From assembly GCA_964389675.1 (NCBI GenBank), contig CAYMEV010000003.1, forward strand, positions 65,109-129,108: 64,000 nucleotides of DNA. The letters run 5' to 3'. This stretch comes from an uncultured Candidatus Sumerlaeota bacterium (GTDB taxonomy: Bacteria; CAYMEV01). A program made the position numbers and the translations under genes. This document shows, in pieces, positions 8,685-39,259 of this stretch; position 1 is the first letter of the stretch, and every line of letters starts with the position of its first letter. The notes beneath the pieces are model-generated. The model did no database searches and was not told where the DNA came from. It saw only the letters and a program-made list of their open reading frames with translations.

Positions 8685-9257
8685 TTAAAATTTCCTGTAG
8701 TACTTTCTTAATATTACATAAACTGCTTCATCAGAGAAGCCTTTGCCTTCGACATAAACATATTCTCTGAGTATGCCTTCAAGCTTCATTGCAAATTTTT
8801 CTGCAATTGCCACTGAACCGGTGTTTTTTGGATTGCACCTCAGTTCACAGCGGTTAATGTCAAAATTCTCAAAGGCAAAATTAATAATGGGTGCAGTGAT
8901 TTCAGATGCAATTCCACGGCCCCAAAGCTTTCTATTAATATCAGCTCCAAGTTCAATCCTTCTGTTCTTTGGATGCCAGTTGTGCAAAGCAGCAGTGCCA
9001 ATAAGCGTGCGAGGCTCATCCCTGTTCACTACAGCCCAGCGGATGGATATTTTGTTCCGGAAATTATCGTTCCAGCTGTTTATTAGCTCTTTGCACTCTT
9101 GTACTGTTTTTGCAGGCATTCTTTCCATGTAAAGCATGCTGGCTGGATCGCCATAGATCTCAAACAGGTCTTCAGCAAATGAGATTTCAGGCCTGATAAG
9201 CAAAAACCGCTTTGTACTGATCACTGGGAATTTCCTGAAAATTTCCGGGTTAATCAT
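8685..9257 (-). CDS. GNAT family N-acetyltransferase (RimJ/RimL-like)
   Basis: GNAT acetyl-CoA-binding core: IGTAALHNWHPKNRRIELGADINRKLWGRGIASE. Confidence 0.7.
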   Translation of the reverse strand: MINPEIFRKFPVISTKRFLLIRPEISFAEDLFEIYGDPASMLYMERMPAKTVQECKELINSWNDNFRNKISIRWAVVNRDEPRTLIGTAALHNWHPKNRRIELGADINRKLWGRGIASEITAPIINFAFENFDINRCELRCNPKNTGSVAIAEKFAMKLEGILREYVYVEGKGFSDEAVYVILRKYYRKF

Positions 9258-9370
9258 TTACCTGCCTTATATAAAACCTGCTTAAGGTGTATTTTCTGAT
9301 TTATCGGTGAAAAAAAGCGAAGCAGAAATAAATCTGCTTCGCTTATGCTTATCCTGATAATGATTATTTA

Positions 9371-23202: not shown

Positions 23203-24045
23203 TTATTTAGCTTTTTCTATCAGTTCATCAAGCATCAGATCTATCTGGAATTCTTCCAGTATGCTGTTTTCAATATTGTCAATTATCCTGGTTTCGAGCT
23301 TGGGCAGGTACAGGCTGTCTGAAAAGCCTTCTCTTTTCAGCAGGTCCTCATAGCCATTTCTTAGTTTGACAGCCAGTGATTTCCTGTCGAAAAGGTCGCT
23401 GAAATTGGATATTATGCAAAGGAATATGTTTTCAGAGACCTGAGAAGCAAAATAATCCTTATCTGGAACATGGGTTTTAAGAATATCGGAAATTCCGAAA
23501 AGGATTGACAATGCATCATCAGGGCCTGAGTTTGCACTGAAAAGGATAAGGTTGTGCAGGGTAAAAATATATACAAGGAACCTTGAATTTAATGAAACAA
23601 GGTTTTTCAGGTGATCTGAAGCGTCATGATATCCCGGTAATTCCGTGAACATGTTAAAATATTCATACGGGTCATGTTTATGAAGGTGGAATTTGAGCCA
23701 TGCAGTTATTTCTTCCCTGTGAAAGGGCTTTTCAATATAATAATCAACTCCGCATTTAATCGCTTTGATCTTTGTTTTTATGCAGTTCTCACCGGAAAGC
23801 AGGATAATTACAATATTCCTGGTAGAAGGCAGGGCTTTTAATCTCCTGCACATATCAAAGCAATCAGTGTTGCCGGGATCAATCTCAGCGATAATTGCAG
23901 CCGGTTTTGTTTCCTGTATGAGATTAAGTATATCCATGCAGCCTTTGTGTAATACAGGCATAAAATCAAGACTTCTGATGCTTCCTTCCAGCAGGCTTTT
24001 CAGTTCAGGATTATCATGAATTATCAGGATTACATTTTTTGCCAT
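23203..24045 (-). CDS. Response regulator receiver domain fused to a degenerate GGDEF-like domain
   Basis: REC domain ILIIHDNPELKSL...IIAEIDPGNTD...KPF. The C-terminal region has GGDEF-like spacing (ELPGY..., ...SGPDDA...) but lacks the GG[DE]EF motif. Confidence 0.5.
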   Translation of the reverse strand: MAKNVILIIHDNPELKSLLEGSIRSLDFMPVLHKGCMDILNLIQETKPAAIIAEIDPGNTDCFDMCRRLKALPSTRNIVIILLSGENCIKTKIKAIKCGVDYYIEKPFHREEITAWLKFHLHKHDPYEYFNMFTELPGYHDASDHLKNLVSLNSRFLVYIFTLHNLILFSANSGPDDALSILFGISDILKTHVPDKDYFASQVSENIFLCIISNFSDLFDRKSLAVKLRNGYEDLLKREGFSDSLYLPKLETRIIDNIENSILEEFQIDLMLDELIEKAK

Positions 24046-24136: not shown

Positions 24137-24748
24137 TTAGCGGAGTTTAGCAAGGATCTTATCCCAGTTAATGCTTCCAGATTCAGCATCATAGCTCCAG
24201 TATGTAAGGAGGCCTCGCCCTTTCACGTAATCCAGGGGGACAAATCCCCAGTATCTGCTGTCATAGCTGTTATCCCTGTTATCTCCCAGCACGAAAATAT
24301 GATCTTCAGGGACTGTGAATTCTTCAATATTGGATGTTCCGGAAGCCATCCTGTTCAGAGGGTTCGTTGAAATGACATATGGTTCTTCAAGCATCTGCCC
24401 GTTTACATACACCTTATTATTCCTGATCTTTATCCGATCCCCCGGAAGGCCTATCAGTCTCTTTATAAAGTCCTTTTTCGGGTCTTCAGGGAATTTAAAT
24501 ACAACTATCTCCTGCCTCTTAAGGTCTCTGTGATACAGGGGGAATATGCCCTTCCAGTAAATGAATCTTAAGAAAAATATCCTGTCCCCCTGCTGTATAG
24601 TGTTCAGCATTGAACCTGTGGGTATTTTTGATGTTTGTATAATAAAAGCCTGAAATATCAGTGCCAGGATTACAGCTGTGACAAATGCTTCAAGATAGTC
24701 CCTGAAGAGTGACAGTTTACGCTTTGGTTCCTTGTTTTTTCCCTTCAT
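24137..24748 (-). CDS. lepB: Signal peptidase I
   Basis: The S26 boxes are present: IPTGSMLNTIQQGDRIF, GLPGDRI and GDNRDNSYDSRYWGFVP. Confidence 0.85.
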   Translation of the reverse strand: MKGKNKEPKRKLSLFRDYLEAFVTAVILALIFQAFIIQTSKIPTGSMLNTIQQGDRIFFLRFIYWKGIFPLYHRDLKRQEIVVFKFPEDPKKDFIKRLIGLPGDRIKIRNNKVYVNGQMLEEPYVISTNPLNRMASGTSNIEEFTVPEDHIFVLGDNRDNSYDSRYWGFVPLDYVKGRGLLTYWSYDAESGSINWDKILAKLR

Positions 24749-24795: not shown

Positions 24796-25755
24796 TTAAT
24801 AAAGAATAAAATTATCAAGTTCTTTTCTATTAAATACAAGACAGCATCCAGAAAAGTGCCTCATATCTGAATCTTTGCTTATATCAATGGTTACATCGCT
24901 GAATGTTGCAGAATAGCTGTGTATTTCAAGCTCTTCGAAAAATACCTTTTCAAAGAGGTCAAAAGACCTTGATATTTTTCCTCCGAATACTATGACCTGG
25001 GGATTGAATAAATTTAATACAGATCCCATCCCTCTTCCGAGGTATTTGCCCAGCCGGTCGAAAAGGCCCTTTGCAACCGGTTCGTTTTTGCGTGCAAGTT
25101 CGGCGATATCGCTTATTTCAATACTTTCAGAGACAGGGTTATTGTTCTCAATACATTCCGAGATATAAAACCTTTTGAGGTTGAAACCTCCACAGAAAGA
25201 TTCAAGACAGCCGGACCTTCCGCAGCTGCAAACAGGCCCGGGAGATTCTATGTTCATATGCCCTACCTCAAAACCATAGCCCCTGTAGCCGATAAATGGC
25301 CTCTGATCTATTATGACACCCCCACCTATGCCAGTGCCAAGTGTTATGCCTATAAAAGGCGAAGTCCTTCTGTCATACCTTGAGTATTCACCTAGTGTAA
25401 AGCTTAATGCATCATTCATGATCGAAAGGGGGCAATCAAAGTTATCGCTTATGTCCCTCAGCAGGTTCTTGCCGTTTAAGGATGGAAGATTCGGCGACTG
25501 TGCAATTGTGAAATCGCGGTTGTCTATAAGGCCTGCAAGGGATATTCCCAGTCCCGATGGCAGTACAGGATGAAACTGGTCTTTGATCTTTTTTGCAAGG
25601 AAGTTTATTATTGCTGTTATCTTTGAGTAGGTAAATGTATTTTCAACCTTTTCGTACAGTATCTCAAAATTATCCATCAGTTTCAGGTCTGAAACGTTCA
25701 GGGCAGCAGCTTTAACAGAACTCCCGCCTACATCCAGGGCAATGTAATAATCCAT
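24796..25755 (-). CDS. ROK family sugar kinase (glucokinase or N-acetylglucosamine kinase-like)
   Basis: LDVGGSSVKAA N-terminal ATP-binding motif and the ROK zinc-binding motif CSCGRSGCLESFCGG. Confidence 0.8.
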   Translation of the reverse strand: MDYYIALDVGGSSVKAAALNVSDLKLMDNFEILYEKVENTFTYSKITAIINFLAKKIKDQFHPVLPSGLGISLAGLIDNRDFTIAQSPNLPSLNGKNLLRDISDNFDCPLSIMNDALSFTLGEYSRYDRRTSPFIGITLGTGIGGGVIIDQRPFIGYRGYGFEVGHMNIESPGPVCSCGRSGCLESFCGGFNLKRFYISECIENNNPVSESIEISDIAELARKNEPVAKGLFDRLGKYLGRGMGSVLNLFNPQVIVFGGKISRSFDLFEKVFFEELEIHSYSATFSDVTIDISKDSDMRHFSGCCLVFNRKELDNFILY

Positions 25756-25987
25756 GGCATCTCTCTCTGTTTTTTAGTAATTTATAACTATTACTTATAA
25801 ACCAGGCATTGATAATTATCAAGCAAGATTTTATTGATTATAATAAATTATTATATACTCTATTCATAAAATAATTTGAAATTTTATTAAATTATTTGCA
25901 TAATCTTTTTTTCTTGAAAAATGGATGCTAAAAATATAAGAACTTCAAAATAGGATAATATACTAAAAAAACTAAACGGAGGAAGAT

Positions 25988-27067
25988 ATGGCCATTGTAA
26001 ATGCATTAAAATTTGATAGATCTTCTGTCGGGATCATTGCTGATGAAGAATACTGGTTTCTTGGAAGGAGGAAAAGCTATTTCCAGGATACACTTCAGCA
26101 TCTTACAGACGAAGAAATAATAGAGAAAACGGGTATTGTAGCCGTTTATGGGGGAACAGGCACCCCTTCATTTCATTGGGATATTATCAAAAAAAGCAGG
26201 GCAAAGATAAAGGAGGAATTCTCAAACAGAGCTAAAAATATCAAGACCATATATGATATCAGCAAAATTGTTCTTGATGTTCTGCAGGATGTAAAAAGAG
26301 ATAGAATAAACCAGAAACTGAGATTTATGTACGGCTTTACGATTGATGATATAAACAGGGGGTTTTTTGAATTTGAGGGTAAAAAATACGATATAAAGCA
26401 AAAAAAGATAAAGGATAAATCACTGGGACTGGTCATGGGAAGCGATAAATCTCACCTTACCAAGCCCATACTTGAGAACAAGGCGGTAATATGCGGTTAT
26501 GACCAGAAGGACGGCATATCAATGTACTACCTGAACTCTGAAAACTCTGTTATGTCATTTACTTCCGGGGGATACGAAGCTATCGGTCCTGGCAAATATG
26601 CATCAGGCCTTGCATTTGCGGAATTTTTCCAGGGAATGCCGTTATATAAGAGAAGAGAGGGGTTTTCAAGGATAGAGGGGATGATACAGCTGATAAATTC
26701 GGCTATCATGGCTGCTGACTATTATAATGAAGTTGGCGGGCTTTTTAATATAATATTCATTGATGGAGAAAAGAAAAATCCCAAAGAAAGGGTTATAGAA
26801 GTCTTTGATAATAAAGGCAAACTTGCAAGCGAGATAGTGAGAAGCTTTAAATGGGGCATGATAACAAAGGAAGAGACTGCAAAATTTATCGATGAGCTGA
26901 TATTTAAGCAGTCTTCTGTAGATGCCCTTGAGGATAAACTTTATAAAGCATCAAAGGATCCAGAAAAGCTTGAACTTCTTTTAAGGGGATACAAGGAAAT
27001 GGAGCTTTGCGAACAGGCCAGCGGGAAGCAGACAAAAGAAAAATCAAAGAAGGCAAAAGGAGAGTAG
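25988..27067 (+). CDS. Hypothetical protein with an HslV/proteasome-beta-like (Ntn hydrolase) N-terminal region; Ala2 in place of the nucleophile
   Basis: MAIVNALKFDRSSVGIIADEEY resembles TTIVGVKYDGGVVLAADTR. VAVYGGTGTPSF resembles the HslV segment VIAGFAGGTADAF. AIGPGKYASGLAFAEF resembles AIGSGGPYAQAAARAL. Tandem paralog of 27069. Confidence 0.3.
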   Translation: MAIVNALKFDRSSVGIIADEEYWFLGRRKSYFQDTLQHLTDEEIIEKTGIVAVYGGTGTPSFHWDIIKKSRAKIKEEFSNRAKNIKTIYDISKIVLDVLQDVKRDRINQKLRFMYGFTIDDINRGFFEFEGKKYDIKQKKIKDKSLGLVMGSDKSHLTKPILENKAVICGYDQKDGISMYYLNSENSVMSFTSGGYEAIGPGKYASGLAFAEFFQGMPLYKRREGFSRIEGMIQLINSAIMAADYYNEVGGLFNIIFIDGEKKNPKERVIEVFDNKGKLASEIVRSFKWGMITKEETAKFIDELIFKQSSVDALEDKLYKASKDPEKLELLLRGYKEMELCEQASGKQTKEKSKKAKGE

Positions 27068-27068
27068 T

Positions 27069-28112
27069 ATGACATCAATTAATGCTATGAAGTTTAATGA
27101 AAAGCAAGGTATATTGATCTGTGACGAATCACGAGGCTGGAATCCGGAAGCAATGAAGCTTCAGACCTCTGATAAGATAAAACCTGTCGTTGAACCTGAG
27201 ATTACCAAAGATACCGGACTGGTAGCCTATTATGGAAATACCGGGACCTCATCAATAGGGGACGAGCTTAAATTCTCAATAAAGCAGGCAATCTCAAAAA
27301 GATTTGAGGAAGAAACCTCAAAAAGGCTGTCATTGCCTAAGGATTTTCTTACCATAGAGCAGATAGCCTCTCTTGCATATGATATACAGATTAATATGAA
27401 AAGGGAGCACATTGATGAGACGCTTCTCGGAAGATACGGCTTTTCCGCAAAGGATTTTATCTCAGGGGGATACACCAGGGATGGCCAGAAGATAGAAATA
27501 AAATCAGAAGAGATAATAAATACGGTTGCTGATGATTTAATATGGAACGGGAGAAAGGGCGAGCCGACCCCCATATTTCTTAATGCAGGGATTATTGCAG
27601 GCTATGAGCCTAAAGAGGGGTTCCGCATCTTCCATCTAAGCCTGATCGATTTCAGCTGTGAGCCCGTCCAGGAGCTCTTTTTAGGAGATGGATCGGGAAG
27701 GGATATGACCACAGTGGTATTTACTGAGCACTCCAATAAAAAGACTGTTCCTGAAAAGAGAGGAAATATTGATGTCACAGAGGGGCTTTTTATTGCTATT
27801 AAAGCAGTAAATGCAGCAGCAAGGCATGACCTGGGTGTCGGAGGTCAGTTTTCAATAATGTATATTGACGGAAATCAGAAAGACAATCTCAAAAAGACAA
27901 AAGAAATGTCAGATATGAGGATTAAACTTCTTTCAGAACTTGTTGAGGCAAATTATTATGAGGTCGTCAACAGGGATGTCTGTTACTTTGCCATAGAAAA
28001 GATAATACTTGAAGATCAGGACTTCTATACAACCTATGAGCAGGTAAAGGGCAAAATAAAGGATTTCAGGAAGTTTTCAAGATTCCTCAGAGGCTACAAG
28101 TTTAAGATGTAA
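27069..28112 (+). CDS. Hypothetical HslV/proteasome-beta-like protein retaining Thr2 (possible N-terminal nucleophile)
   Basis: MTSINAMKFNEKQGILICDES resembles MTTIVSVRRNGHVVIAGDG. Also carries the VAYYGNTGTSSI motif. Paralog of 25988, separated from it by 1 nt. Confidence 0.3.
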   Translation: MTSINAMKFNEKQGILICDESRGWNPEAMKLQTSDKIKPVVEPEITKDTGLVAYYGNTGTSSIGDELKFSIKQAISKRFEEETSKRLSLPKDFLTIEQIASLAYDIQINMKREHIDETLLGRYGFSAKDFISGGYTRDGQKIEIKSEEIINTVADDLIWNGRKGEPTPIFLNAGIIAGYEPKEGFRIFHLSLIDFSCEPVQELFLGDGSGRDMTTVVFTEHSNKKTVPEKRGNIDVTEGLFIAIKAVNAAARHDLGVGGQFSIMYIDGNQKDNLKKTKEMSDMRIKLLSELVEANYYEVVNRDVCYFAIEKIILEDQDFYTTYEQVKGKIKDFRKFSRFLRGYKFKM

Positions 28113-28202
28113 CAATACTAAGGGGCACTGATAAGGTGCCCTTTCTATTTTTCACTTATTGAACCACTTTATTTTATATCCCTGGAAAATGGTCTGATCA
28201 AT

Positions 28203-29579
28203 ATGGCTTTAAGGAATAAGATCCGTATTTATGCGTTCTGGTTTTTTTTCGTATTATCCGCTTTGTCTTTTCTCTTTTTAATACTTAATCTTATTGCCGG
28301 GGCTAAACAGCTGGATTTCCTCTTATTCAGGCTCAGCTTCAGGAATACAGGGAAACTCATACAAAATCTGCTCATTATCACTTTTATTGCATATTTGGCC
28401 GATCGCCTTGAGTTTAAGAAGCAGTTAAAAAGATGCAGGCCCATGATTGTAATTATCCTGATGGCGCTTCTTGCCTTTATTCCTGCGAAAATACTTTTCA
28501 GCAATTATTCTCCATATAATAAATTTACCTCACTGATAAATTTCGGGCAGGAACAGTTTAAAGACGCATTGCCGGAAATCCGCGGATCATATCCTGCTGT
28601 TGCTTCAAAATGGGGCTATGACGGTCAGTACTATGCTCAGCTGTCTGCCGACCCGCTCCTGAGAAGTGATAAGCTTCCCAAAGCTCTTGATCTGCCTCAT
28701 TACAGAGCAAGGCGTATTGGACTGCCGTTCCTGGCTTTTTTGCTTGGAATGGGGAAAACATCCCGGGTCCTGAATGTTTATTCAGTCCTGAATGCAGCAT
28801 TCTGGATCCTTCTCCTGGCAATTATTATAGTGCATACAGGCTGCAGGAGGTACAGGGACTTCCTGCTGGCGGCCTCAATGCTGTGGGCTACGGGGACTCT
28901 GGTCTCAGTTGAGAGGGCATTGACAGACCTTCCTGCAGCTGTAATGGGGGTTGCAGCCGTTTTTACGCGCAGTTCATGGATAGCTGCTGCAGTGCTTCTT
29001 AGCTGTGCAGGTCTTATCAAGGAAACCTCAATACTGAGCTTTACTGCTGTTCCTGTCGAACCGGGGTCAAAGCATGAAAGAAGAAAAAGACTGCTGGCAA
29101 CATTGTTTATCTGCCTTCTGCCTGTTCTTGCATGGGCTTTATATGTTCATCTTGTTTTTAAAAATATGGCCGGAATGGGGGGCAATAACTTTAATCTGCC
29201 ATTTTTTGGAATCTTCATGAAATTTCAATCAGCCATATCAGGGCTGATAACAGGTAAAGCGGGAATATTGGGACACCAGCTGTTATTTGAACTTCTATGC
29301 CCTTTTTCTCTTCTGGTTCAGGCATTATACCTTGCAGTATGTTTCCGTCCGGATTCAAAAGAATGGAGATTAGGAGTTGGATTTGCTTTTCTTCTTTTAT
29401 TTCTGGGCTCTGATGTGTGGGCTGAACAGCATGCATATTCGAGAGTCCTTCTTCCTATGACATTTTCCTTCAACCTTCTCCTGCACAGATTTGAAAAGGG
29501 ATATAAATACGCTATTTTATATATATTGGGTAATACCGGAATGTTCTGGGCAGTATTCTGGCATTTCCAGCAGGCCTGA
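28203..29579 (+). CDS. Polytopic integral membrane protein of unknown function
   Basis: More than 10 predicted TM helices. Co-oriented with a downstream GT-C-like gene. Confidence 0.4.
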   Translation: MALRNKIRIYAFWFFFVLSALSFLFLILNLIAGAKQLDFLLFRLSFRNTGKLIQNLLIITFIAYLADRLEFKKQLKRCRPMIVIILMALLAFIPAKILFSNYSPYNKFTSLINFGQEQFKDALPEIRGSYPAVASKWGYDGQYYAQLSADPLLRSDKLPKALDLPHYRARRIGLPFLAFLLGMGKTSRVLNVYSVLNAAFWILLLAIIIVHTGCRRYRDFLLAASMLWATGTLVSVERALTDLPAAVMGVAAVFTRSSWIAAAVLLSCAGLIKETSILSFTAVPVEPGSKHERRKRLLATLFICLLPVLAWALYVHLVFKNMAGMGGNNFNLPFFGIFMKFQSAISGLITGKAGILGHQLLFELLCPFSLLVQALYLAVCFRPDSKEWRLGVGFAFLLLFLGSDVWAEQHAYSRVLLPMTFSFNLLLHRFEKGYKYAILYILGNTGMFWAVFWHFQQA

Positions 29580-29620: not shown

Positions 29621-30988
29621 ATGTTCAGACTGCTGAAGAATAAGAGAAATATAGTATATCTGATCACAGGTTATGCTGCAGTATTGCTGATATCCTTTAT
29701 CTTTCATTATGCCTTTTATTACCCTGAGCATGAGATAAGGGTGGAGAGTGACGGGATAGGCTATTATTCCTACCTGAGGTCGGTCTTCTTTGACGGCGAT
29801 ATTGAGTTTTCAAATGAATTTGAAAGGCTCGGTTCCGATGATTTTGCCCTGCCTTCTCCGGATGACAGGACAGGTGAAGGCTATACCCCTAATCCATTCT
29901 CGATCGGGCCGGGAATACTCTGGAGCCCTTTCTATATCTGCGCCCATATGGCAGGGTATGCAATGAATATGCTCGGCGCTGATATTGTCCTTGATGGTTA
30001 CAGCGGAATTTATGTCTACTTTTGTGTTGCCGGGACAATCTTTTATGGATATCTGGGATTGTATCTTCTCTTCAAAATGCTGAGCATATTCTTTTCTAAA
30101 ACTATCTCTTTCTCTGTTACAGGATTTATTCTGTTCGGGAGCGCTCTGTTTTATTATATGATATCAGAATATTTCATGTCGCATGTTCATTCGTTCTTTG
30201 CAGTTACACTCCTTTTATACTTCATTTTCATCAGGCTTGACAGGGAAAGGGGCAGTGAGACAGACTGGTTTTTTGCCGGGCTTATTTCCGGGTTTGCCGG
30301 AATTATCAGGTGGCAGAACATAGGTTTTGCAATAGTGCCCGCTTTCCTGCTGATACTGAATACATGCAGAGAGTATAAAAAAGCAGGCAGGAAAAGAGTG
30401 TTTACAGGGCTTATAAGAAGGGCTTCCCTGTTTGGGGCAGGGTTTATTATCATCATTATCCCTCAAATGATTATTATAAAAATGATCTACGGGTTCTGGT
30501 TTGGAATACCGCAGGGGCAGGCTTTCTTCTCATTTGACATTTTAAGGATGTTCTATGTGCTCTTTTCACCGTATCACGGCCTTTTCCAGTGGCATCCCAT
30601 ACTGCTCTTCGGGTTTGCAGGGCTCATATTATCAGGGTTTAAATCCTTAAAGAACCTGTTTTTTCTTATGGCCTTTATTATACAGGTATATATAGTAAGC
30701 CTGCCTTATGACTGGTGGGCAGGGCATTCATTCGGCATGAGAAGGCTTCTGAACAGCAGCGCGCTTCTTGCTTTCGGCCTTTCGGGCATCCTGTATGCCT
30801 TATCCAGAAAGAACAGGGCTGTCTACAGGATCATCTATCTTGTTTTCATAGTATTTTGCCTGATAAACATCCTGATGTCATGTGCATATGTCAAATCTCT
30901 AATACCACATGATATTCCATGGTCCTACATTCAATCCCTTGAAAGCATAATCTTTCTGGTCAGGAAGATTATGCTCAAGCTGTTTTAG
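29621..30988 (+). CDS. GT-C fold membrane glycosyltransferase-like protein (ArnT/PMT-like)
   Basis: Multi-TM protein with a first-loop motif ESDGIGYYSYLRSVFFDGDIEF resembling the ArnT/PMT DE..Y..AR....GDW signature. Paralog of 58071. Confidence 0.45.
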   Translation: MFRLLKNKRNIVYLITGYAAVLLISFIFHYAFYYPEHEIRVESDGIGYYSYLRSVFFDGDIEFSNEFERLGSDDFALPSPDDRTGEGYTPNPFSIGPGILWSPFYICAHMAGYAMNMLGADIVLDGYSGIYVYFCVAGTIFYGYLGLYLLFKMLSIFFSKTISFSVTGFILFGSALFYYMISEYFMSHVHSFFAVTLLLYFIFIRLDRERGSETDWFFAGLISGFAGIIRWQNIGFAIVPAFLLILNTCREYKKAGRKRVFTGLIRRASLFGAGFIIIIIPQMIIIKMIYGFWFGIPQGQAFFSFDILRMFYVLFSPYHGLFQWHPILLFGFAGLILSGFKSLKNLFFLMAFIIQVYIVSLPYDWWAGHSFGMRRLLNSSALLAFGLSGILYALSRKNRAVYRIIYLVFIVFCLINILMSCAYVKSLIPHDIPWSYIQSLESIIFLVRKIMLKLF

Positions 30989-31001: not shown

Positions 31002-32009
31002 CTATTTCTTTTCTAATTGCAGTGAAAGGGTTTCATAAGCTTTTAAAAGCCTTTTAATTATCTTGATTGCTTTTGCTTTTATTTCCTTGTTTTCCAATTT
31101 TCTTATTTTATCAGGATGGAATTTATGGACAAGCTTATTATAGTTCTTATCAAGCTGTTTCTTTGTATAGGGATCCTTTATTCCCATCAGCTTAAAATCG
31201 TCTATTTTGCTCAGGTTTTTATAGAAAAATTCTATATTGGATATAATGCTGTCATCTTCTTTGGCGAATTTATAAAGCCTTTCAATTATACCGCAGGATA
31301 TAAACCCGAAAAGGGTCTTGTAGGTAAAGTAATCTGGAAGGTTTGAATGTGCACAGATCTGATCATTGGTATTCCTGCCGTTTATCAGCTCCAGGATCTG
31401 GAGTTCTTCCGAGTTAAGCTTAAGTTCCTGAAAACGGAAGATGGGGTTATGCGATATGCAGTAAACAGCATTCAGATCTCCGACTGCTTTCCTTATAGCA
31501 TCCCACTGTCCCATTCTTTTGACCCCGTTGAATATAAGGCTTCCGGTAGAAAGCTCTATCTTTATATTTTCACTTTGAATTTCCTTCTCGAAGAAGCTGT
31601 AATCTCCGTCAGAGAATGAAAACAGGCTGTAGATGATCTCTTCCAGGTGGCTCTGGACAGCTTTGACCAGTTCCTTTTCAGAGATCGCCCCCATATTCAG
31701 CAATGTTGTCCCGATACGGTCTTCATTCTGAACCTTCACTGATTTTTCCAGTTCTTTAAGCGTTATAAGAGAGCGCTTCAGGCAGTAAACGCCAATCCTG
31801 TCGTTAATATCGCTTGATATGGCAAATACTATGTGCCCATCCTGGAAAAGTACCTTTTTTATGGTGTTCTGCCTTATAATCTGCAGTATGCCTGTTTTCT
31901 GAGTCTGGTAAATAGACCTGAAAACAGCAGATATAGGGATATCGCTTAAAGAACCCTCTATTTTGTGCTCCATGGAAGTGATTTTCCATAAATTAAGAGT
32001 GATTGTCAA
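31002..32009 (-). CDS. DUF4388 (PATAN-like) domain protein with a C-terminal DnaJ J-domain
   Basis: N-terminal DUF4388 pattern (GSLSDIPISAVFRSIYQTQKTGILQI....VLFQDGHIVFA). C-terminal J-domain with the HPD motif (YNKLVHKFHPDK). Confidence 0.6.
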   Translation of the reverse strand: MTITLNLWKITSMEHKIEGSLSDIPISAVFRSIYQTQKTGILQIIRQNTIKKVLFQDGHIVFAISSDINDRIGVYCLKRSLITLKELEKSVKVQNEDRIGTTLLNMGAISEKELVKAVQSHLEEIIYSLFSFSDGDYSFFEKEIQSENIKIELSTGSLIFNGVKRMGQWDAIRKAVGDLNAVYCISHNPIFRFQELKLNSEELQILELINGRNTNDQICAHSNLPDYFTYKTLFGFISCGIIERLYKFAKEDDSIISNIEFFYKNLSKIDDFKLMGIKDPYTKKQLDKNYNKLVHKFHPDKIRKLENKEIKAKAIKIIKRLLKAYETLSLQLEKK

Positions 32010-32197: not shown

Positions 32198-33124
32198 ATG
32201 GCTGAAATTGTATACAGGGAAAACCAGGAAGAAAGGCTTATAACCCTTGATAAGGATTCATTTGTGATTGGCAGAAGCCCAAGCTGTGAAATTGCAATAA
32301 GCAGTGACACAATATCAAGAAGGCATGCAAAACTGGAAAAAAGGTCAAACCGGTATTATATTACTGACCTTGGAAGCAGGAATGGTGTTTTTGTCAATGA
32401 TGAAAAGATAGTTGAATCAGTACTGAAGGATGGAGATTTTATCAAGCTTGGTGTTTTTGAGTTTACCTTTCATGATAAAGAGCCTGTTATTGTAGACAGC
32501 AATAAGACAATACAGCAGGAGCAGAAGACCATTATGCTGGAAAACCCGCTTGAGAAATTCATATTAAAGGACCTTCCGGCATCTGAGGATACATATATTG
32601 AAAAAAAAGAAAAAGATAAAGTAATTGAAGATGATATAATTGCTGAAGACCGGCAGGAAAGTACGCCTGATGATGATGAAAGCGAAATTGAATCAGATGG
32701 ATACTTCCCCAACCTTCTGATCTTTCATGATGAAAAGGCATTCAGGGCTACCATAAAAAAGAACCGTAATACGATCGGAGGTTCTGCGATTTCTGATATA
32801 CCCATAAATCACGAAGGTTTTCCTGAATCAGCCTGTATTATCAGGAATGAAAAGGGCATTTTCTATTTAGTGGATGAATTTCAGACAGGGGAGATCATGT
32901 ATAATAATGTCCCTGTAATACATAAAAGACTGTTTGATAAGATGATATTTATGATTCAGGATGTGACTTTCCAGTTTATTTCCAATAAGAAGGGTGCTGA
33001 AGCAGTTTTTGAAAAAGTTTATGCTGTCTTCAGGATTTTTATTGAAAAACCTCTGATAGGCATGGCATTTGTTGCTGGAATTCTTATTCTGATCTCTCTT
33101 CTTCTTGTTATATTTTTATTATAA
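32198..33124 (+). CDS. FHA-domain protein (one clear and one probable FHA) with a C-terminal TM anchor; SctD-like cytoplasmic module
   Basis: FHA motif VIGRSP.CEIAI..DTISRRHAKL....YYITDLGSRNGVFVN. A second FHA-like block (NTIGGS...ACIIRNEKGIFYLVD). A C-terminal hydrophobic helix MAFVAGILILISLLLVIFLL. Confidence 0.65.
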   Translation: MAEIVYRENQEERLITLDKDSFVIGRSPSCEIAISSDTISRRHAKLEKRSNRYYITDLGSRNGVFVNDEKIVESVLKDGDFIKLGVFEFTFHDKEPVIVDSNKTIQQEQKTIMLENPLEKFILKDLPASEDTYIEKKEKDKVIEDDIIAEDRQESTPDDDESEIESDGYFPNLLIFHDEKAFRATIKKNRNTIGGSAISDIPINHEGFPESACIIRNEKGIFYLVDEFQTGEIMYNNVPVIHKRLFDKMIFMIQDVTFQFISNKKGAEAVFEKVYAVFRIFIEKPLIGMAFVAGILILISLLLVIFLL

Positions 33125-33140
33125 AAATTAAGGATATTTT

Positions 33141-33845
33141 ATGAGCCTGAGAAGCGAACCTTCTAATGAGCTGTCTGAAGAACTGATACAAAATTACCAG
33201 GATTATCTAAGAAAGATCGCATATTTTGTGAAGATTACGCTTCCTGATAATATTGAGATCGACGACCTGGTCCAGTATGGGGAGATCGGCCTGATAGAAG
33301 CAGCAAGAAAATTTGATCCGAAACTGGGTGTTTCGTTCAAGACATACAGCTATTACAGGATCAGGGGTGCTATATATGACGGGCTCAGGACCATGGGGCT
33401 TTTTAAGGCAAAACAGTATAAGAATCATGTAATGCGCCAGAAAATCAATGACCTGATGATGCAGGAAACAAATAATGTAAATATAAACAGCGATACCTGC
33501 AGAAATGATGACAGCGTTGAAAGACTGCGGGATATATTTTCCAGTGTTGCAACACTTATCACTCTTTCTTATGCATCTTATATGGACCATGAGGTACAGA
33601 ACGGCAATGATGATATAAATAAGGAGCTTATAACCGAGGAAACAAAATCCTTAATTATGAAGGCAATTGAACAGCTTTCCCATAAGGAAAGAAATGTTGT
33701 TAAGCTTTACTATTTTGATGAACTGACATTTGAAGACATCGGCAAAGAAATGGGGCTTTCAAAGAGCTGGATTTCACGTGTACATCTGCAGGCGATAAAT
33801 AAGCTTAAGCAGAAGCTTAAGCAAAGTAATATAACAACATATTGA
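33141..33845 (+). CDS. fliA: Sigma-28 (FliA/WhiG) family RNA polymerase sigma factor
   Basis: Sigma-70 region 2 (DLVQYGEIGLIEAARKFDPKLGVSFKTYSYYRIRGAI) and region 4 (LTFEDIGKEMGLSKSWISRVHLQAINKLK). 234 aa, typical of FliA. Confidence 0.8.
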   Translation: MSLRSEPSNELSEELIQNYQDYLRKIAYFVKITLPDNIEIDDLVQYGEIGLIEAARKFDPKLGVSFKTYSYYRIRGAIYDGLRTMGLFKAKQYKNHVMRQKINDLMMQETNNVNINSDTCRNDDSVERLRDIFSSVATLITLSYASYMDHEVQNGNDDINKELITEETKSLIMKAIEQLSHKERNVVKLYYFDELTFEDIGKEMGLSKSWISRVHLQAINKLKQKLKQSNITTY

Positions 33846-33897
33846 CAGATAGAATCGATAATCTATATGTAATGTTATATAAGGAGGTGTCGCAACT

Positions 33898-34359
33898 ATG
33901 GATCCTGTATCGTCAAAGACTGTAAAAAAAAGCATTAGCAATATTGCTGAGAAGAATATTCAGAATGAGATGAATAAAAATCTTCCGACAAATCCAGATA
34001 AACCTTCCAGCTTTGAGCAGCTTCGGCTTGATAAGGTAAATGAAATACCAAAGGATGCTGAACTTAAGGTTAACGAGGTTGGAAAGCAAAAAGATATGGA
34101 TATATCAAGCACGCAGAAAGTCCAGGACAATAATCCCATAGACGGCTTGAAAAACCTGACCGATAACCTTGAGAAAAGCAATGTAGAGCTTGATAATCTC
34201 ATCAAGAGTGTTATGCAGGATGGCAGGTCATTTTCACCGTCTGAACTGATGGCAATGCAAGCTCAGATATATCAGCTTACCAGGGAGATAGAACTTACCA
34301 GCAAGGTTGTTGAACAGGCCAACCAGGGCATAAAGACCATGCTGAATCAGCAAGTATAA
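33898..34359 (+). CDS. FliE-like or T3SS inner-rod-like protein
   Basis: The C-terminus (SELMAMQAQIYQLTREIELTSKVVEQANQGIKTMLNQQV) resembles the FliE C-terminus (...MQ...KLV.AYQEVMSMQV). Sits in the fliE position before the MS-ring gene. Confidence 0.35.
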   Translation: MDPVSSKTVKKSISNIAEKNIQNEMNKNLPTNPDKPSSFEQLRLDKVNEIPKDAELKVNEVGKQKDMDISSTQKVQDNNPIDGLKNLTDNLEKSNVELDNLIKSVMQDGRSFSPSELMAMQAQIYQLTREIELTSKVVEQANQGIKTMLNQQV

Positions 34360-34370
34360 GGAGAAACTGC

Positions 34371-35171
34371 TTGAAAAAAATAAAAATCTTTTTAACCATG
34401 TCTATTTTACTTATGATGTTCGTATCCTGCGGGAATACAGTTCTGTACCACGGGCTCTCGGAAAGGGGAGCAAATGAGATACTGGTCATACTTGAACAGA
34501 ATGGGATAGCGGGGGAAAAAGTACTGGATGAAACTCAAAAAAAGATCATGCTCTTTAATATTGTCGTGGCAAAAAGCGATAAGAACCAGGCTCTGGAAAT
34601 CCTGAAAGAGAAAGGCCTTCCAAGGATAAACCCGGTTGGCATGAATGAGATGTTCAGCGGGTCCAGCCTTATTCCCACCATTACAGAAGAAAAAGCCAAA
34701 TATCAGATAGCAATGCAGGGTGAGATCGAAAAAACCCTTCTGCAGATGCAGAATGTTATTTCAGCAAGGGTCCATCTTGTTATTCCGGATGCAGATAATG
34801 TCGAACAGCAGAATGAACCTGCGATAGCCAAGGCCTCTGTATTTTTGAAATACTACCAGGGCCTGCAGCAGACACCAATGTTTACGGAAAAGGATGTGCA
34901 GAATATTGTTGCAGGGGCAGTGCTTGAGCTGACTCCAGGCAATGTTACTGTAGTGCTTCAAAGGATACAGCCTGTCGAGGTATCCCAATCATCGCCAAAA
35001 TATACCAGTTTCATGTTCTATAATATCGCGCCTGAATCAAAAAAGAGCATGCAGATAACACTTGTTATTATCTTATCAGTGGTTTTTATACTTTTATTTG
35101 CTATAGTTATAATGTTCCTGAAGATCAAGGATTTGAAAACATCCCTAAGCATTATAAAAACAAAAAAATAA
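34371..35171 (+). CDS. SctJ/YscJ-like lipoprotein (truncated FliF-family MS-ring protein)
   Basis: Lipoprotein signal MSILLMMFVSC. CGNTVLYHGLSERGANEILVILEQNGIAGEKV resembles YscJ/EscJ C.EQLYTGLT.KEANQM.ALLQSNGI.AEK. ISARVHLVIPDADNVEQQNEPAIAKASVFL resembles both the FliF and SctJ ring-building motif. One C-terminal TM. 266 aa, versus about 550 for FliF. Confidence 0.7.
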   Translation: MKKIKIFLTMSILLMMFVSCGNTVLYHGLSERGANEILVILEQNGIAGEKVLDETQKKIMLFNIVVAKSDKNQALEILKEKGLPRINPVGMNEMFSGSSLIPTITEEKAKYQIAMQGEIEKTLLQMQNVISARVHLVIPDADNVEQQNEPAIAKASVFLKYYQGLQQTPMFTEKDVQNIVAGAVLELTPGNVTVVLQRIQPVEVSQSSPKYTSFMFYNIAPESKKSMQITLVIILSVVFILLFAIVIMFLKIKDLKTSLSIIKTKK

Positions 35172-35175
35172 TAAT

Positions 35176-36123
35176 ATGCAGGAAATTAAGACATTTGTAA
35201 GTCTTCTGGCCTTCCAGGATATAGACAGGAAGGATGACCTGCTTGAGTATCTCTGCAATGACTGTAAAGAGATCTGCGCGCAATACCTGCAGGAATTTGA
35301 AGGGAAAACTCAGGAAGAAATACATAAATTATCCCTGATTGAGCTTAAAGAGGATATCGCAAAAAATTTTCTGAAAATATACAGTTCTTTCCATTTCAGC
35401 TGGCTTGAAGATTTTTTCAGGAATGAAAGCCGGGAAACAATATCAACAGTCCTCAAATTCGTCCCTCTTGAGATGTCCGGCGCTATTCTCGGGTTATTTT
35501 CCGAGGAGGAAAGAAATGAGATCCTGCAGACAATACCAAGCTCATTTGTTAGCAGGGAGATAATGGAGATTCTTAAATTCAGCATTATTGAAAGGTACGG
35601 AGCGATTCCAGCTGATGCGGACCAGATTATCCGGAGTGACCAGATACTCAAGTTTCTTATGCAGAATGATGTTGATCTTACCAGCTTTCTTTCCTTTATA
35701 TATTCTTATGAAATATATGCTCTTTTAAGCAAGACAGTTTCTGCTGATAACAGAGCACAGATATGCTCTGAGATGAGTACGGAAAAAGATATAAATGCAC
35801 AGGTTGAATGGTTTAACAGGGCACATGCTTCAATTGATTTTGATTATACTGTATTTTCCAGAGCATGTGATTTCAGGATCTCTGTCAATAAGGGATACCT
35901 TATAATCCCCTTTATCAGGATTTTTACCTGCCTGCAGTCAAAGAACCTTATAAAAAGTGCTGCAAGGGCTATTTCATACAGGATGGAGATGTCAGCGGGG
36001 AATGATTTTCTGCTTTTTTGCGAGGACAATGAAAAAACAGCAAATCCAGTCAATGCAGAGATGAATTCAAAGAGACTGTCAGAAATAATACATAGCTATA
36101 AGTTATTTAAAAGCGAGGCTTAA
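35176..36123 (+). CDS. FliG/MgtE-N-like domain protein in the fliG position
   Basis: SRETISTVLKFVPLEMSGAILGLFSEEERNEILQTIPSSFVSREIMEIL resembles the FliG middle-domain pattern HPQTIALILSYL.PDQAAEIL..LPEELQAEVV.RIA. The C-terminal torque-helix motifs are not evident. Confidence 0.35.
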   Translation: MQEIKTFVSLLAFQDIDRKDDLLEYLCNDCKEICAQYLQEFEGKTQEEIHKLSLIELKEDIAKNFLKIYSSFHFSWLEDFFRNESRETISTVLKFVPLEMSGAILGLFSEEERNEILQTIPSSFVSREIMEILKFSIIERYGAIPADADQIIRSDQILKFLMQNDVDLTSFLSFIYSYEIYALLSKTVSADNRAQICSEMSTEKDINAQVEWFNRAHASIDFDYTVFSRACDFRISVNKGYLIIPFIRIFTCLQSKNLIKSAARAISYRMEMSAGNDFLLFCEDNEKTANPVNAEMNSKRLSEIIHSYKLFKSEA

Positions 36124-36125
36124 AA

Positions 36126-36770
36126 ATGTCATTTTCAGACGATACCAAAAAGGTGGTTATTCAGAAAAGTTCGGACGATATCATCGGCCCGCCTCCTGAG
36201 AGGAAGATCCTTACCAAACAGGAAATTGATGCATCAAAAATGGCTCAGACGATTATCGAAGAGGCAAAGAAGAAGGCTGAGGAGATAATAGGGGAAAAGG
36301 AAAAAATAGTAGAGGAAGCCAAAAATGAGGCTTACAATGAGGGTTATAAAAGCGGGCTTGAAAGTATCAATAAGATTCTTCTGGAGCTTAAGGACCTGAG
36401 GAACAATACAATTGTGGCCATGGAGTCTGAGATAGTAAAACTGGCTTTCAGGATAGCGAGGAAGATACTCGGATATGAAATGCAAAGGGACGATACAACG
36501 GTGTTGTCCATCGTTAAAGAGGTATTAAAGGCTTCAAGGCACCAGAAGTCTATTAAGCTGTCTGTAAACCCTGATGATTATAAAATAATAAAGCAGAACA
36601 GGGAGAGCCTTGTTGCTGTTCTTACAAAATGCGAAAGTTTCCTGATAGAGCCGAATGAACATATTTCAAAGGGAGGCTGTGAGATTGAGACGGAGATAGG
36701 AAATGTATCAGCAAACCTCGATACGCAGCTTGAGGTTCTGGAATCACTGCTCTTGAACAAGGAGGTATGA
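36126..36770 (+). CDS. FliH/SctL family T3SS ATPase stator-regulator
   Basis: Charged coiled-coil N-terminus ([35 protein letters not shown]) followed by a FliH-type C-terminal domain. Immediately precedes the ATPase gene. Confidence 0.6.
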
Positions 36771-38101
36771 AATTGGCTTCATCCCCCATTAAACTGGATA
36801 AGTACCTTAAACTGCTTGATACAGCAAGCACTGTAAAGGTAAGAGGGCGGGTAATTGAGCTTACCGGGCTTATTATAAAGGCTTCAGTACCCGGTGTCAG
36901 GATCGGCGAAACATGTTATATCGAGTCATATAACCGCGTATCGCCTCTTAAAGCAGAGGTAGTCGGATTCAAGGGAGATAATGTAATGCTTATGCCGCTT
37001 GGTGACCTGACAGGCATAGGGCCTGACAGCCAGGTGATACCCACAGGCAAATCCTTCAGCATAAGAATAGGGGACCAGCTTCTCGGCCATGTGCTCGATG
37101 GACTGGGACAGCCTCTGGATATAAGCGAGGAAGAGTTTCAAGGCTTTGATCTCGATACATATTCCGTTAATTCCGATCCCCCGGATCCCCTTAAGCGCAG
37201 AAGGATACTTGATTACCTGTCAATAGGGATCAGGGCAATTGACGGCCTGCTTACTGTCGGAGAAGGGCAGAGGATGGGCCTTTTTGCAGCAGCTGGTGTA
37301 GGCAAGTCAACCACAATGGGAATGATAGCCCGCAATACTGAAGCTGAAGTGAACGTTATTTCATTGATAGGGGAAAGAGGAAGAGAAGTAAGGGATTTTA
37401 TGGAAGAAAGCCTTGGAGAGGAAGGTTTGAAGAAATCAATTGTCGTTGTGGCCACATCTGATAAACCATCTCTTGTAAGGCTTAAATCAGCATTTGTTGC
37501 CACGGCCATAGCGGAATATTTCCGTGATAAAGGCAGAAAAGTGATGCTTATGATGGACAGTGTCACAAGGTTTGCAAGAGCACAGAGGGAAGTTGGGCTG
37601 GCCCTGGGTGAACCGCCTGCAAGGCAGGGATACCCCCCGTCTGTCTTCTATATGCTTCCCAAACTCCTTGAGAGGACAGGGAATTCAGACAGGGGATCAA
37701 TTACGGCTTTCTATACTGTCCTGGTCGCGGGGGATGATATGACAGAACCTATTGCAGATGAGGTAAGGTCCATACTTGACGGGCATGTTATCCTTTCACG
37801 CGAAATGGCATCAAGGAATCATTATCCTGCTATAGATGTGCTAAGAAGCGTCAGCAGGGTAATGACTGCGGTAGTGGACAAGGAGCATATAGAGTTTGCG
37901 GGCAGAATGCGTGACCTTCTGGCTACATACGAGAAACAGAAAGACCTTATACTAATCGGAGCATATAAGAAAGGCTCTGATGAAAAGGTAGACAAGGCAG
38001 TTGAAATGATTGACAGGATCAACGAGTTCCTGAAACAGGGGCTTTATGAGAAGTGCTATATTGATGAAACGATTGAGAAACTGAAAGAGATGTTTGCATG
38101 A
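36767..38101 (+). CDS. Type III secretion ATPase (FliI/SctN)
   Basis: Walker A AAGVGKST, a Walker B region and full-length F1-like architecture. 444 aa. Overlaps the fliH-like stop by 4 nt. Confidence 0.9.
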
Positions 38102-38601
38102 GCGGCAGGATAGTATACAGGCTTGAACCGGTCCTTAACCAGAAGGAAGAAGAGAAGAACGAAGCTACCCGGAATCTTGCCTTTGCACAGAAGAAGCTTG
38201 AAGATATCAGGGAAGAGATCAGGGGGCTTGAGAACCTTGTAATAAAAAGGGTTGAAGAGAAAAAGCAGGCGGAGCTTGCTCACTTTGAAAAACTCAGTAC
38301 AGAGGGGATGGCTGCAAAGTCTATTCAAGGACACCAGGCTGAAATGAAAGCCATTGATATATCAGTTGAGGAGATAAAGGAAAAGATAAGCTTAAAAAAA
38401 ATAGAGGAAAAGAATGCCGAACAGGATCTCAATACTGCTAAGGACAGGCTGGTTGAAGCAACCAAGGAATACAAGACCATGGCGAAACACAAAGAAAATT
38501 TCATCAGGGAACAAAGGGCCATTCTCAGCAAAAAAGAACAGAAGGAAATGGACGAAATTTCCAGTTTGATATATAATTTCAAGGGGAAAGGAGATGAATG
38601 A
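38098..38601 (+). CDS. FliJ/SctO-like coiled-coil chaperone-escort protein
   Basis: 167 aa, predicted all-helical and charged. In the position that follows the ATPase in T3SS operons. Confidence 0.45.
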
Positions 38602-39259
38602 TATGGAAAAGGTATCGACCACAACACAGAAAACAAAAGCAGCACCCAGCGATACCAAGCAGACAAAAGACGCAAAACAGCCATCAGAAAAGTCTTTTGC
38701 AAAGGTATTTCACCGAAAGGGTGAAGATCTGTCAATGCATGACTCAAAGAAGGATATAAATAAGCAGTTAAGGAAGGATATAATACTGGGTGAAGACACA
38801 GAGAAGAAAGAGAAAGGAAAGGAAGGAAGTGAAGAAAAGCTTGATGGATTCATGATCCCGAGACTCATTTCAGAAAAATCAGGTGCTGAAGGCATAAAGG
38901 AATCCATTAAGGTCGGGGAAGCGAAAGTAAAGCTTGACGAGAATCTTATAAACAGGATTGTTGAATCTGCCAGGATCGTGAGAAAAGGTGATACAGCTTC
39001 AATGGAGATCAATATCAAATCGGATGTTTTTGAAAACCTTAAGCTTATTGTCACAGCTGAGGGTAATGCAGTTAAAACAGAGTTCATTACGGACAACCCA
39101 ATGCTTAAGGGGCTTATTAAGGATTCAATGGTCGATCTTGAGCAGAGCCTCGTTGCAAGAGGCCTTGAGGTTCTTGATATTGTTGTCAGGGATGAGCCTC
39201 CTAAGTCTGAAAGCCAGAAACAATACGATGAGTACAGGAGAATAAATGAGCAGAAGTAG
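38594..39259 (+). CDS. FliK/SctP-like length-control / substrate-specificity-switch protein
   Basis: Lys/Glu-rich low-complexity N-terminus. The C-terminal about 100 aa (ENLINRIVESARIVRKGDTASMEINIKSDVFENLKLIVTAEGNAVKTEFITDNPMLKGLI) are T3S4-like. In the fliK position. Confidence 0.4.
   Translation: MNDMEKVSTTTQKTKAAPSDTKQTKDAKQPSEKSFAKVFHRKGEDLSMHDSKKDINKQLRKDIILGEDTEKKEKGKEGSEEKLDGFMIPRLISEKSGAEGIKESIKVGEAKVKLDENLINRIVESARIVRKGDTASMEINIKSDVFENLKLIVTAEGNAVKTEFITDNPMLKGLIKDSMVDLEQSLVARGLEVLDIVVRDEPPKSESQKQYDEYRRINEQK

Follow-up and report, generated by a model that had tools for sequence, protein, structure and literature searches.

Two adjacent genes in a 64,000-nucleotide stretch of DNA from an uncultured Candidatus Sumerlaeota bacterium (contig CAYMEV010000003.1 of assembly GCA_964389675.1, positions 65,109 to 129,108; hereafter the window) encode diverged paralogs, termed A and B, that represent a conserved active/inactive pair within the proteasome-like superfamily and are confined to uncultured phyla. 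We propose that they probably constitute a two-gene operon for a heteromeric N-terminal nucleophile (Ntn) hydrolase of the Thr1 type, in which B would be the catalytic subunit and A a pseudoenzyme partner. Upstream of each of the two open reading frames (ORFs) there is no further start codon before the preceding stop, so neither can be extended in that direction. Their products are similar across the full length (BLASTP, 27% identity, E=1e-35) and are therefore real diverged paralogs rather than a chance resemblance, as a preliminary description of the locus had held; alignment of the B profile with the A profile by hhalign gives a probability of 100 and E=4e-75 over 343 columns at 26% identity. 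The same description had pointed to Ala at position 2 of the first protein and Thr at position 2 of the second, and the N termini are indeed MAIVNALKFD in A and MTSINAMKFN in B. Transmembrane (TM)-like segments were found in neither protein.

AlphaFold2 models, one per protein, were built on 57-sequence alignments, with a predicted local distance difference test (pLDDT) score of 91.8 for A and 92.4 for B and a predicted template-modelling score (pTM) of 0.89 for both; the C-terminal ∼20 residues of A form a Lys-rich tail of low model confidence. Foldseek comparison with the PDB gave 1,179 matches at E≤1e-3 for A, led by a chain of the M. tuberculosis proteasome (3hfa_V, E=3.1e-9, template-modelling score normalised to the target 0.81), and 960 for B, led by 3hfa_X (E=2.3e-9, normalised score 0.78). 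The top matches of both models (E of 2e-9 to 3e-9, normalised scores of 0.78–0.82) are 20S subunits, mainly of the beta type, from M. tuberculosis, yeast, mammals and archaea, and those of A also include alpha subunits and the bacterial protein Anbu (5nyw, E=1.9e-8). Proteasome/HslV-like phage models in BFVD are weaker structural matches than cellular proteasomes. We regard the structural evidence as decisive: as modelled, A and B both have the proteasome-like alpha-beta-beta-alpha fold, as the preliminary description had suspected from the strand pattern of their N termini, and not an unrelated one. In both models, strands S1, S2 and S3 are followed by a short helix, S4, the long helices H1 and H2, an insertion of ∼45 residues, four strands, H3, a short insertion, H4, two strands, H5 and three C-terminal helices. 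The insertion after H2 (residues ∼127–170 of B) is composed of a helix, a beta-hairpin and further helices, the helix between S3 and S4 has only ∼7 residues in the B model, and the three C-terminal helices form an extension of ∼50 residues. The extra ∼130–150 residues are spread over the longer H1 and H2, the insertion after H2, the small insertion between H3 and H4 and the C-terminal extension, and not, as first described, concentrated in a single ∼150-residue extension behind the core. An L-R-G-Y-K motif follows the three-helix extension, with a variable tail behind it, and its Arg (Arg341) is invariant in B.

Profile searches leave the pair outside the curated families. Neither protein matched Pfam at E≤1, and no family in Pfam or NCBIfam covers the A/B family. 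B matched the NCBIfam model of the archaeal proteasome beta subunit, TIGR03634, with E=7.6e-5 and 22.4 bits, far under the cutoff of 224, and the ‘peptidase HslV family’ PHROG, phrog_1040, with E=7.9e-6; a phmmer search of PDB sequences with B reached the T. acidophilum beta subunit at E=0.37. PF00227 (Proteasome) is the only recurrent Pfam match, found in 8 of 57 B relatives (best E=0.005) and, when scanned individually, in none of 57 A relatives. The cutoff of PF00227 or of TIGR03634 is thus reached by neither protein of the window. Against PDB sequences the B-type profile matched beta-type-6 best (E=0.15) and the A-type profile alpha-type-5 (E=0.04); with matches this marginal, sequence alone would not establish homology to the proteasome.

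The two proteins differ in the residues of the proteasome active site. In B, the equivalents of Thr1, Asp17, Lys33 and Gly47 are Thr2, Asp19, Lys36 and Gly56, and Gly208-Ser209-Gly210 corresponds to Gly128-Ser129-Gly130; the Ser209 loop aligns directly with the Gly-Ser-Gly of the T. acidophilum beta subunit in the HMMER/phmmer alignment. A first search with B returned 135 relatives, none of which has a Pfam domain or a name other than ‘hypothetical’, and the first 120 homologs begin predominantly with MTS (107) or MTT (7). Met1, Thr2, Asp19, Lys36, Gly56, Thr58, Gly59, Asn172, Gly208, Gly256, Gly259 and Arg341 are invariant in the B alignment, and Ser209 and Gly210 nearly so. Catalytic columns were counted over 141 B-type sequences, 70 A-type sequences and 48 sequences of a third group, the C-type, described below. 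The Thr1 column is Thr in 140/140 B-type and 45/45 C-type sequences, and Ala (41), Gly (8) or Ser (6) in the A-type, where a single Thr (locus L022) and a single Pro (L058) also occur among the locus-derived sequences, both in proteins that lack Lys33 as well. Lys33 is present in all 141 B-type sequences and in 44/45 of the C-type, and in none of the 70 A-type sequences, which have Asn, Ser, His, Thr, Cys or Pro instead. Ser129 is retained in 140/141 B-type and 46/48 C-type sequences and is variable in the A-type. Gly47 is kept in 139/141 B-type and 53/65 A-type sequences, and Asp17 in 140/140, 46/46 and 60/64 sequences of the B-, C- and A-type, respectively. A of the window itself has Ala2 for Thr1, Thr35 for Lys33 and Pro201 for Ser129, and retains Asp19 as the equivalent of Asp17. 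Its ‘AIGPGKYA’ segment, which had been likened to the HslV loop, indeed occupies the place of the Gly-Ser-Gly loop of the proteasome and HslV, but lacks the Ser. The pairing of an active with an inactive protein, earlier suggested for this one locus, thus extends across phyla, with Thr1, Asp17 and Lys33 all kept in B and only Asp17 kept in A. From these residues B is predicted to be an active Thr1 Ntn-hydrolase subunit, and A is predicted to be catalytically inactive, so that only its fold and descent make it a member of the superfamily. Methionine aminopeptidase can remove the initiator Met whether Thr, Ala, Gly or Ser stands at position 2, and B would therefore expose Thr1 without a propeptide.

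Gene A is not decaying. Compared with the closest related locus, L006, A has a proportion of non-synonymous differences (pN) of 0.060 and of synonymous differences (pS) of 0.713, and B has 0.033 and 0.788. Both genes are under purifying selection, which is strong for A; the corresponding ratio of non-synonymous to synonymous substitution rates (dN/dS) for A, ∼0.03, is only approximate because synonymous sites are saturated. Across phyla, A-type proteins can be aligned from end to end and have conserved residues of their own (Asp19, Arg28, Gly58, Pro60, Gly200, Gly202, Arg222, Glu282, Glu315 and Lys336). In a neighbour-joining tree they form one clade, which fits a single origin.

The two genes are conserved as a unit. 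In a scan that covered 185,579 GTDB species with one genome each, and that was based on peptide patterns and so gives a lower bound, 64 loci were found in 37 genomes, all of them metagenome-assembled genomes (MAGs), with up to three loci per genome. The carriers belong to candidate division CSSED10-310, Vulcanimicrobiota, Muiribacteriota, Wallbacteria and Schekmanbacteria and to Planctomycetota-labelled and unclassified bins. Together with five loci from look-ups of encoding contigs and the window itself, these make up a set of 70 loci, and an A-type ORF lies directly upstream of B on the same strand in 63 of them, which bears out the co-occurrence of the pair. The distance from the A stop to the B start in the 63 loci is an overlap (−4 or −1) in 33, 0–15 nucleotides in 18, 16–100 in nine and more than 100 in three. 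Among the seven loci without a detected upstream A, three lie at contig ends (L018, L039 and L040), three are orphan B genes (L035, L036 and L038) and the seventh (L063) does contain an A-type ORF, which the motif search had overlooked. Clustering of flanking ORFs in 66 loci found no gene family besides A and B at a fixed position or beyond lineage-level synteny: recurring flanks extend to at most 12 loci and are wholly different between lineages, while A–B adjacency persists over at least six candidate phyla. Pup, Mpa and AAA+ families are all missing from the families that recur next to A and B in these loci, nor was an AAA+ family present in the annotated neighbourhoods examined. A Ser/Thr-kinase family is found near the pair in 17 loci, but neither its position nor its strand is constant; as the family is large and paralogous, its presence was put down to chance. 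In one lineage, Vulcanimicrobiota/Eremiobacterota, Tricorn_N/PD40 beta-propeller genes flank the pair (L004:1163-2458 and 9179-10150, and the equivalents in L005), which, being limited to that lineage, may be a coincidence. Viral contigs of IMG/VR contained no relative and PADLOC defence models no match; with these negative results, a role in defence or in phages is without support.

A and B have also diverged together. Over 24 cognate pairs, the pairwise identities of A and of B are correlated with r=0.84, a value reached in 0 of 2,000 Mantel permutations; common phylogeny adds to this correlation, yet subfamilies also pair cognately within genomes that carry two or three pairs. B is more conserved than A in 276 of 276 comparisons, with a mean identity of 40% against 32%. 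A and B of one locus are always 23–31% identical, and this constancy indicates that the duplication is older than the spread of the pair over these phyla. The loop after strand S2, the segment of lowest model confidence in both proteins, varies in step between them: A with ‘DEEYWFLRRRK’ accompanies B with ‘CDEQRGWN’, A with ‘D[QRK]ESW[FH]..RK’ accompanies B with ‘CDEQRHWN’, and A with ‘DESTWHLGFKYGYRR’ accompanies B with ‘DESIS/DESIT...’ (matched in the window and in L050, L053, L056, L059–L062, L066 and L069). The matched loops could form a shared A–B interface or a joint substrate site.

The organization of the genes in the window resembles that of a self-contained unit. The TAG stop codon of A (27065–27067) is separated by a single base (27068) from the ATG of B (27069), and the region upstream of A is AT-rich, both as originally reported. 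The Shine-Dalgarno-like sequence of B lies inside the last codons of A, an arrangement that fits translational coupling. Eight nucleotides past the B stop there starts a terminator-like hairpin with a stem of 10 pairs, five of them GC, followed by CTATTTTTCA, which is the end of the A–B unit in the window. With the Shine-Dalgarno sequence of B within A and a terminator 3′ of B, A–B looks like a self-contained bicistronic unit. The region upstream of A contains 13 promoter-like consensus sites against 8.1 expected.

A wider family surrounds the pair. When 1.84 billion cluster representatives were searched exhaustively with HMMER, 353 proteins were returned at E≤1e-3, 285 at ≤1e-10 and 132 at ≤1e-30, and this search revealed the diversity of the A-type as well as the C-type clade; a word-indexed search with the A profile added few sequences. 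C-type proteins (P0209–P0272) are ∼305–327 residues long, begin with MTV[IV][SN]AMKF and retain Thr1, Asp17, Lys33 and Ser129. They share the insertion after H2, conserved in the A-, B- and C-types, and the C-terminal motif, here LRGY[KR]. Cluster look-ups of 19 C-type proteins gave as named sources only MAGs of Candidatus Woesearchaeota (DPANN archaea), and in L070 the C-type gene (2431–3381) is solitary, lying between a gene for a Fic-domain protein and one for a RIO-type kinase. The orphan B subfamily (L035:6001-7044, L036:5920-7035 and L038:3355-4398) has the full set of catalytic residues with no A nearby, and its conserved N terminus is MTSINALRFNDYSGIM[IL]CDEQRSWNPE, preceded in some called ORFs by MQN or MQI. 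The genomes concerned also carry two complete A–B pairs. A protein of 246–248 residues is conserved just downstream of the orphan B genes, in convergent orientation.

We propose that A and B would be produced from a bicistronic, translationally coupled operon as two subunits of one cytosolic proteasome-like enzyme. Methionine aminopeptidase would strip Met1 from B, exposing the Thr nucleophile with no propeptide involved, and this Thr would work with Asp19, Lys36, Gly56 and Ser209. A would have arisen once, by duplication of a B-like gene, and would have lost the nucleophile, Lys33 and Ser129 while retaining the fold; it would co-assemble with B in a non-catalytic role, for example in scaffolding, gating, substrate recognition or the restraint of B. 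Such a split would be analogous to, yet independent of, the alpha/beta division of the 20S proteasome. Since B has no propeptide, it is an attractive idea that assembly with A might control when the active site of B becomes competent or accessible. Several points weigh against this proposal. We infer the physical association of A and B from gene coupling and co-divergence, and we likewise infer their stoichiometry, a ring or other architecture, peptidase rather than ligase chemistry and the substrate. The equivalents of Thr1, Asp17, Lys33 and Gly47 were mapped by the order of secondary structure elements and the position of motifs, not by superposition of coordinates. The extended active-site network of B departs from the canonical proteasome, as the equivalent of Asp166 is Asn (80) or Asp (41) and that of Ser169 is Val. 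The solitary orphan B and C-type genes indicate that the fold does not in general require an inactive partner. Finally, it has been argued that insertions after H1/H2 might obstruct the assembly of rings or act as a cap (PMC8665760), so that a 20S-like barrel is not assured for A and B, which have an insertion at this site.

It is very improbable that the pair is merely a highly divergent canonical bacterial 20S proteasome of the PrcA/PrcB type, or HslV. The resemblance to 20S alpha/beta subunits (archaeal and actinobacterial PrcA/PrcB; MEROPS T1) is real: the Ntn-hydrolase fold is the same, B has the Thr1/Asp17/Lys33/Gly47/Ser129 set, one active and one inactive paralog are likewise encoded side by side, the top structural matches are 20S subunits of M. 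tuberculosis and the marginal profile matches pair A with an alpha and B with a beta subunit. However, A and B each have their nearest relative in the other, with an hhalign match far better than that of either to any alpha or beta subunit (E>0.01), which argues for a duplication internal to the A/B family and independent of the alpha/beta split. In addition, A begins at strand S1 (E4-8) without the N-terminal H0 gating helix, both proteins, at ∼350 residues, have family-specific insertions and a common C-terminal motif, and the score for TIGR03634 falls short by an order of magnitude. HslV (ClpQ) is, like B, a bacterial Thr1 peptidase with a Gly-Ser-Gly loop whose nucleophile is exposed by removal of Met1, but it is a compact, homo-dodecameric protein of ∼175 residues without insertions or H5 and is encoded with the AAA+ protein HslU, whereas the partner of B is an inactive paralog and HslU is absent from the recurring neighbours. 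It is also improbable, if less so, that A and B no longer cooperate, B being a homo-oligomeric protease in the manner of HslV, BPH and Anbu, A having been co-opted elsewhere and their adjacency reflecting operon inertia. Active-type genes without A do exist and A evolves faster than B in every comparison, but inertia accords poorly with adjacency across candidate phyla despite changing flanks, with start/stop overlap in about half of the paired loci, and with co-divergence and cognate pairing of the kind typical of subunits in a fixed ratio.

Among assemblies that do contain both proteins, a compartmentalised particle is a tentative possibility; inactive A and active B would occupy defined positions, in separate rings or alternating within rings, as a second independent invention of an alpha/beta-like system, with the Woesearchaeota clade and orphan B as the homo-oligomeric ancestral state. 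Less likely, B could act as a transpeptidase or ligase with sequence specificity, or as an amidase on a non-protein substrate, and A could confer specificity or regulation on it within a small heterodimer. The model for this is connectase, in which a proteasome-like fold with insertions acts as a specific ligase (PMC7980362; PMC8665760). Like B, it combines an N-terminal nucleophile with insertions and has no unfoldase, and it illustrates that a proteasome homolog can do something other than degrade proteins. Flank clustering found neither an AAA+ unfoldase nor any further partner consistently next to A and B, the post-H2 insertion and the short S3/S4 helix are at sites proposed to interfere with ring formation or to cover the active site (PMC8665760), and several cognate pairs per genome would suit a set of specificities. 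However, connectase is monomeric, restricted to methanogens and without H1/H2, and has a two-helix S3/S4 lid (PMC8665760), whereas A and B have elongated H1/H2, a short S3/S4 segment and a paralogous partner; furthermore, flank clustering brought out no conserved neighbour that could encode a substrate. The data are equally compatible with hydrolysis and with transpeptidation. A small heteromer of connectase-like chemistry is a serious alternative. On balance, we favour the heteromeric hydrolase with B as its catalytic and A as its pseudoenzyme subunit.

Anbu is likewise bacterial and proteasome-like, and its C-terminal helix is extended. It consists of a single active subunit of ∼240 residues that forms homo-oligomeric helical or ring assemblies, and its conserved operon contains ATP-grasp, alpha-E and transglutaminase-like genes, families that are absent from the flanks of the window and of the annotated related loci. 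A closer comparison is with the 22 subfamilies defined by Fuchs, Alva & Lupas in 2021, which include PMI-1 to PMI-6, ‘proteasome homologs with multiple insertions’ (PMC8665760). Insertions follow H1/H2 in PMI-3 and PMI-4 and lie between H3 and H4 in PMI-2 to PMI-6 (PMC8665760); by the described positions, these are the sites at which A and B are expanded. Like B, the PMI proteins are uncharacterised prokaryotic proteins that retain the active-site residues and lack both a propeptide and an AAA+ partner. That study selected candidates by conserved active-site residues, states that it found neither a pattern of genomic context nor one of co-occurrence, and describes no inactive A-like partner or obligate gene pair (PMC8665760). 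Its Table 1 lists no PMI group for ‘Other Archaea’ (PMC8665760), unlike the A/B family, whose sister clade is in Woesearchaeota. Representatives named there (for example OGZ26396.1 and HDY66466.1) had no accession match in the look-ups of the 19 C-type proteins, and later papers citing the study contained nothing further on these families. Part of the A/B family may already have been catalogued, which is the main risk to its newness. Even if B falls in a known cluster, the obligate inactive partner, the genomes with several cognate pairs and the Woesearchaeota sister clade appear to be undescribed in the literature searched.

The coordinates of the pair, its expression signals and its neighbours are collected below. 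The two membrane-protein genes that follow B, to which the preliminary description had drawn attention, are present, but a link to the pair was rejected, since a terminator separates them from B and the genes beside the pair differ in other genomes; the two genes probably form a surface-glycan unit independent of A–B. Further downstream lies a type III secretion-like gene cluster (32198–43957, plus strand), in which the YscD, YscI and short YscJ features point more to an injectisome-like system than to a flagellum.

Table 1. Genes, sites and signals of the A–B locus and its surroundings, in window coordinates
Feature	Position	Strand	Details
Response-regulator gene	23203–24045	−	Receiver domain (residues 5–115) and ∼165 residues without Pfam match (Pfam scan)
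Signal peptidase I gene	24137–24748		Adjoins response-regulator gene
ROK-family kinase gene	24796–25755		Divergent from gene A
Divergent AT-rich intergenic region	25756–25987	+	232 bp upstream of A, 20.7% GC against 40.5% in the window
Promoter-like hexamers	25876–25904		TTGAAA-17-CATAAT, upstream of A; consensus match only
Shine-Dalgarno of A	25978–25983	+	GGAGGA; sequence reading
Gene A	25988–27067	+	359 residues; ORF list
Ala2 codon of A	25991–25993	+	Position of the N-terminal nucleophile
Loop after S2, A	26045–26092	+	Residues 20–35
L-R-G-Y-K motif, A	26981–26995	+	Residues 332–336
Shine-Dalgarno-like sequence of B	27056–27064	+	AAAGGAGAG
Gene B	27069–28112	+	347 residues; ORF list
Thr2 codon of B	27072–27074	+	Predicted N-terminal nucleophile
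Loop after S2, B	27126–27173	+	Residues 20–35
Lys36 codon of B	27174–27176	+	Lys33 equivalent
Ser209 codon of B	27693–27695	+	Ser129 equivalent, Gly-Ser-Gly loop
L-R-G-Y-K motif, B	28086–28100	+	Residues 340–344
Intrinsic-terminator-like hairpin and T-run	28120–28154	+	Hairpin 28120–28144
Polytopic membrane protein gene	28203–29579	+	458 residues, 6 TM-like segments; NF046093, AZOBR_p60025 cell-surface glycopolymer formation family, E=1e-35
Polytopic membrane protein gene	29621–30988	+	455 residues, 8 TM-like segments; LA_3751/LA_3752 putative glycosyltransferase family, E=5.5e-14
DUF4388/DnaJ protein gene	31002–32009	−	N-terminal DUF4388, C-terminal DnaJ (J) domain; between membrane-protein genes and type III secretion-like cluster
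FHA/YscD-like gene	32198–33124	+	Type III secretion-like cluster
Sigma-70 family factor gene	33141–33845	+	Same cluster
YscI-like gene	33898–34359	+	Same cluster
Short YscJ/FliF-family gene	34371–35171	+	Same cluster; 266 residues
FliG-like, then FliH/SctL genes	Between 34371–35171 and 36767–38101	+	Same cluster, by gene order
SctN/FliI ATPase gene	36767–38101	+	Same cluster; then FliK-like gene
FHA and FliN_C fusion gene	39246–40709	+	Same cluster; then FliP and FliR
FlhB/YscU gene	42905–43957	+	End of cluster

The origin of the split of the proteasome into an inactive, gatekeeping alpha and an active beta subunit is debated, and to our knowledge only one prokaryotic example of an alpha/beta-like split is known. 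The A/B family would be an independent and evolutionarily younger case of such an active/inactive division, and would clearly exemplify the conservation of a pseudoenzyme partner in bacteria. It adds proteasome-like enzymes outside the curated models to CSSED10-310, Vulcanimicrobiota, Wallbacteria, Muiribacteriota and Schekmanbacteria, and may be of biotechnological interest if connectase-like chemistry proves true. Likely intermediates are extant, in the form of solitary DPANN genes, orphan active genes and genomes with up to three cognate pairs, so that the steps from a homo-oligomer to an obligate hetero-oligomer could be reconstructed.

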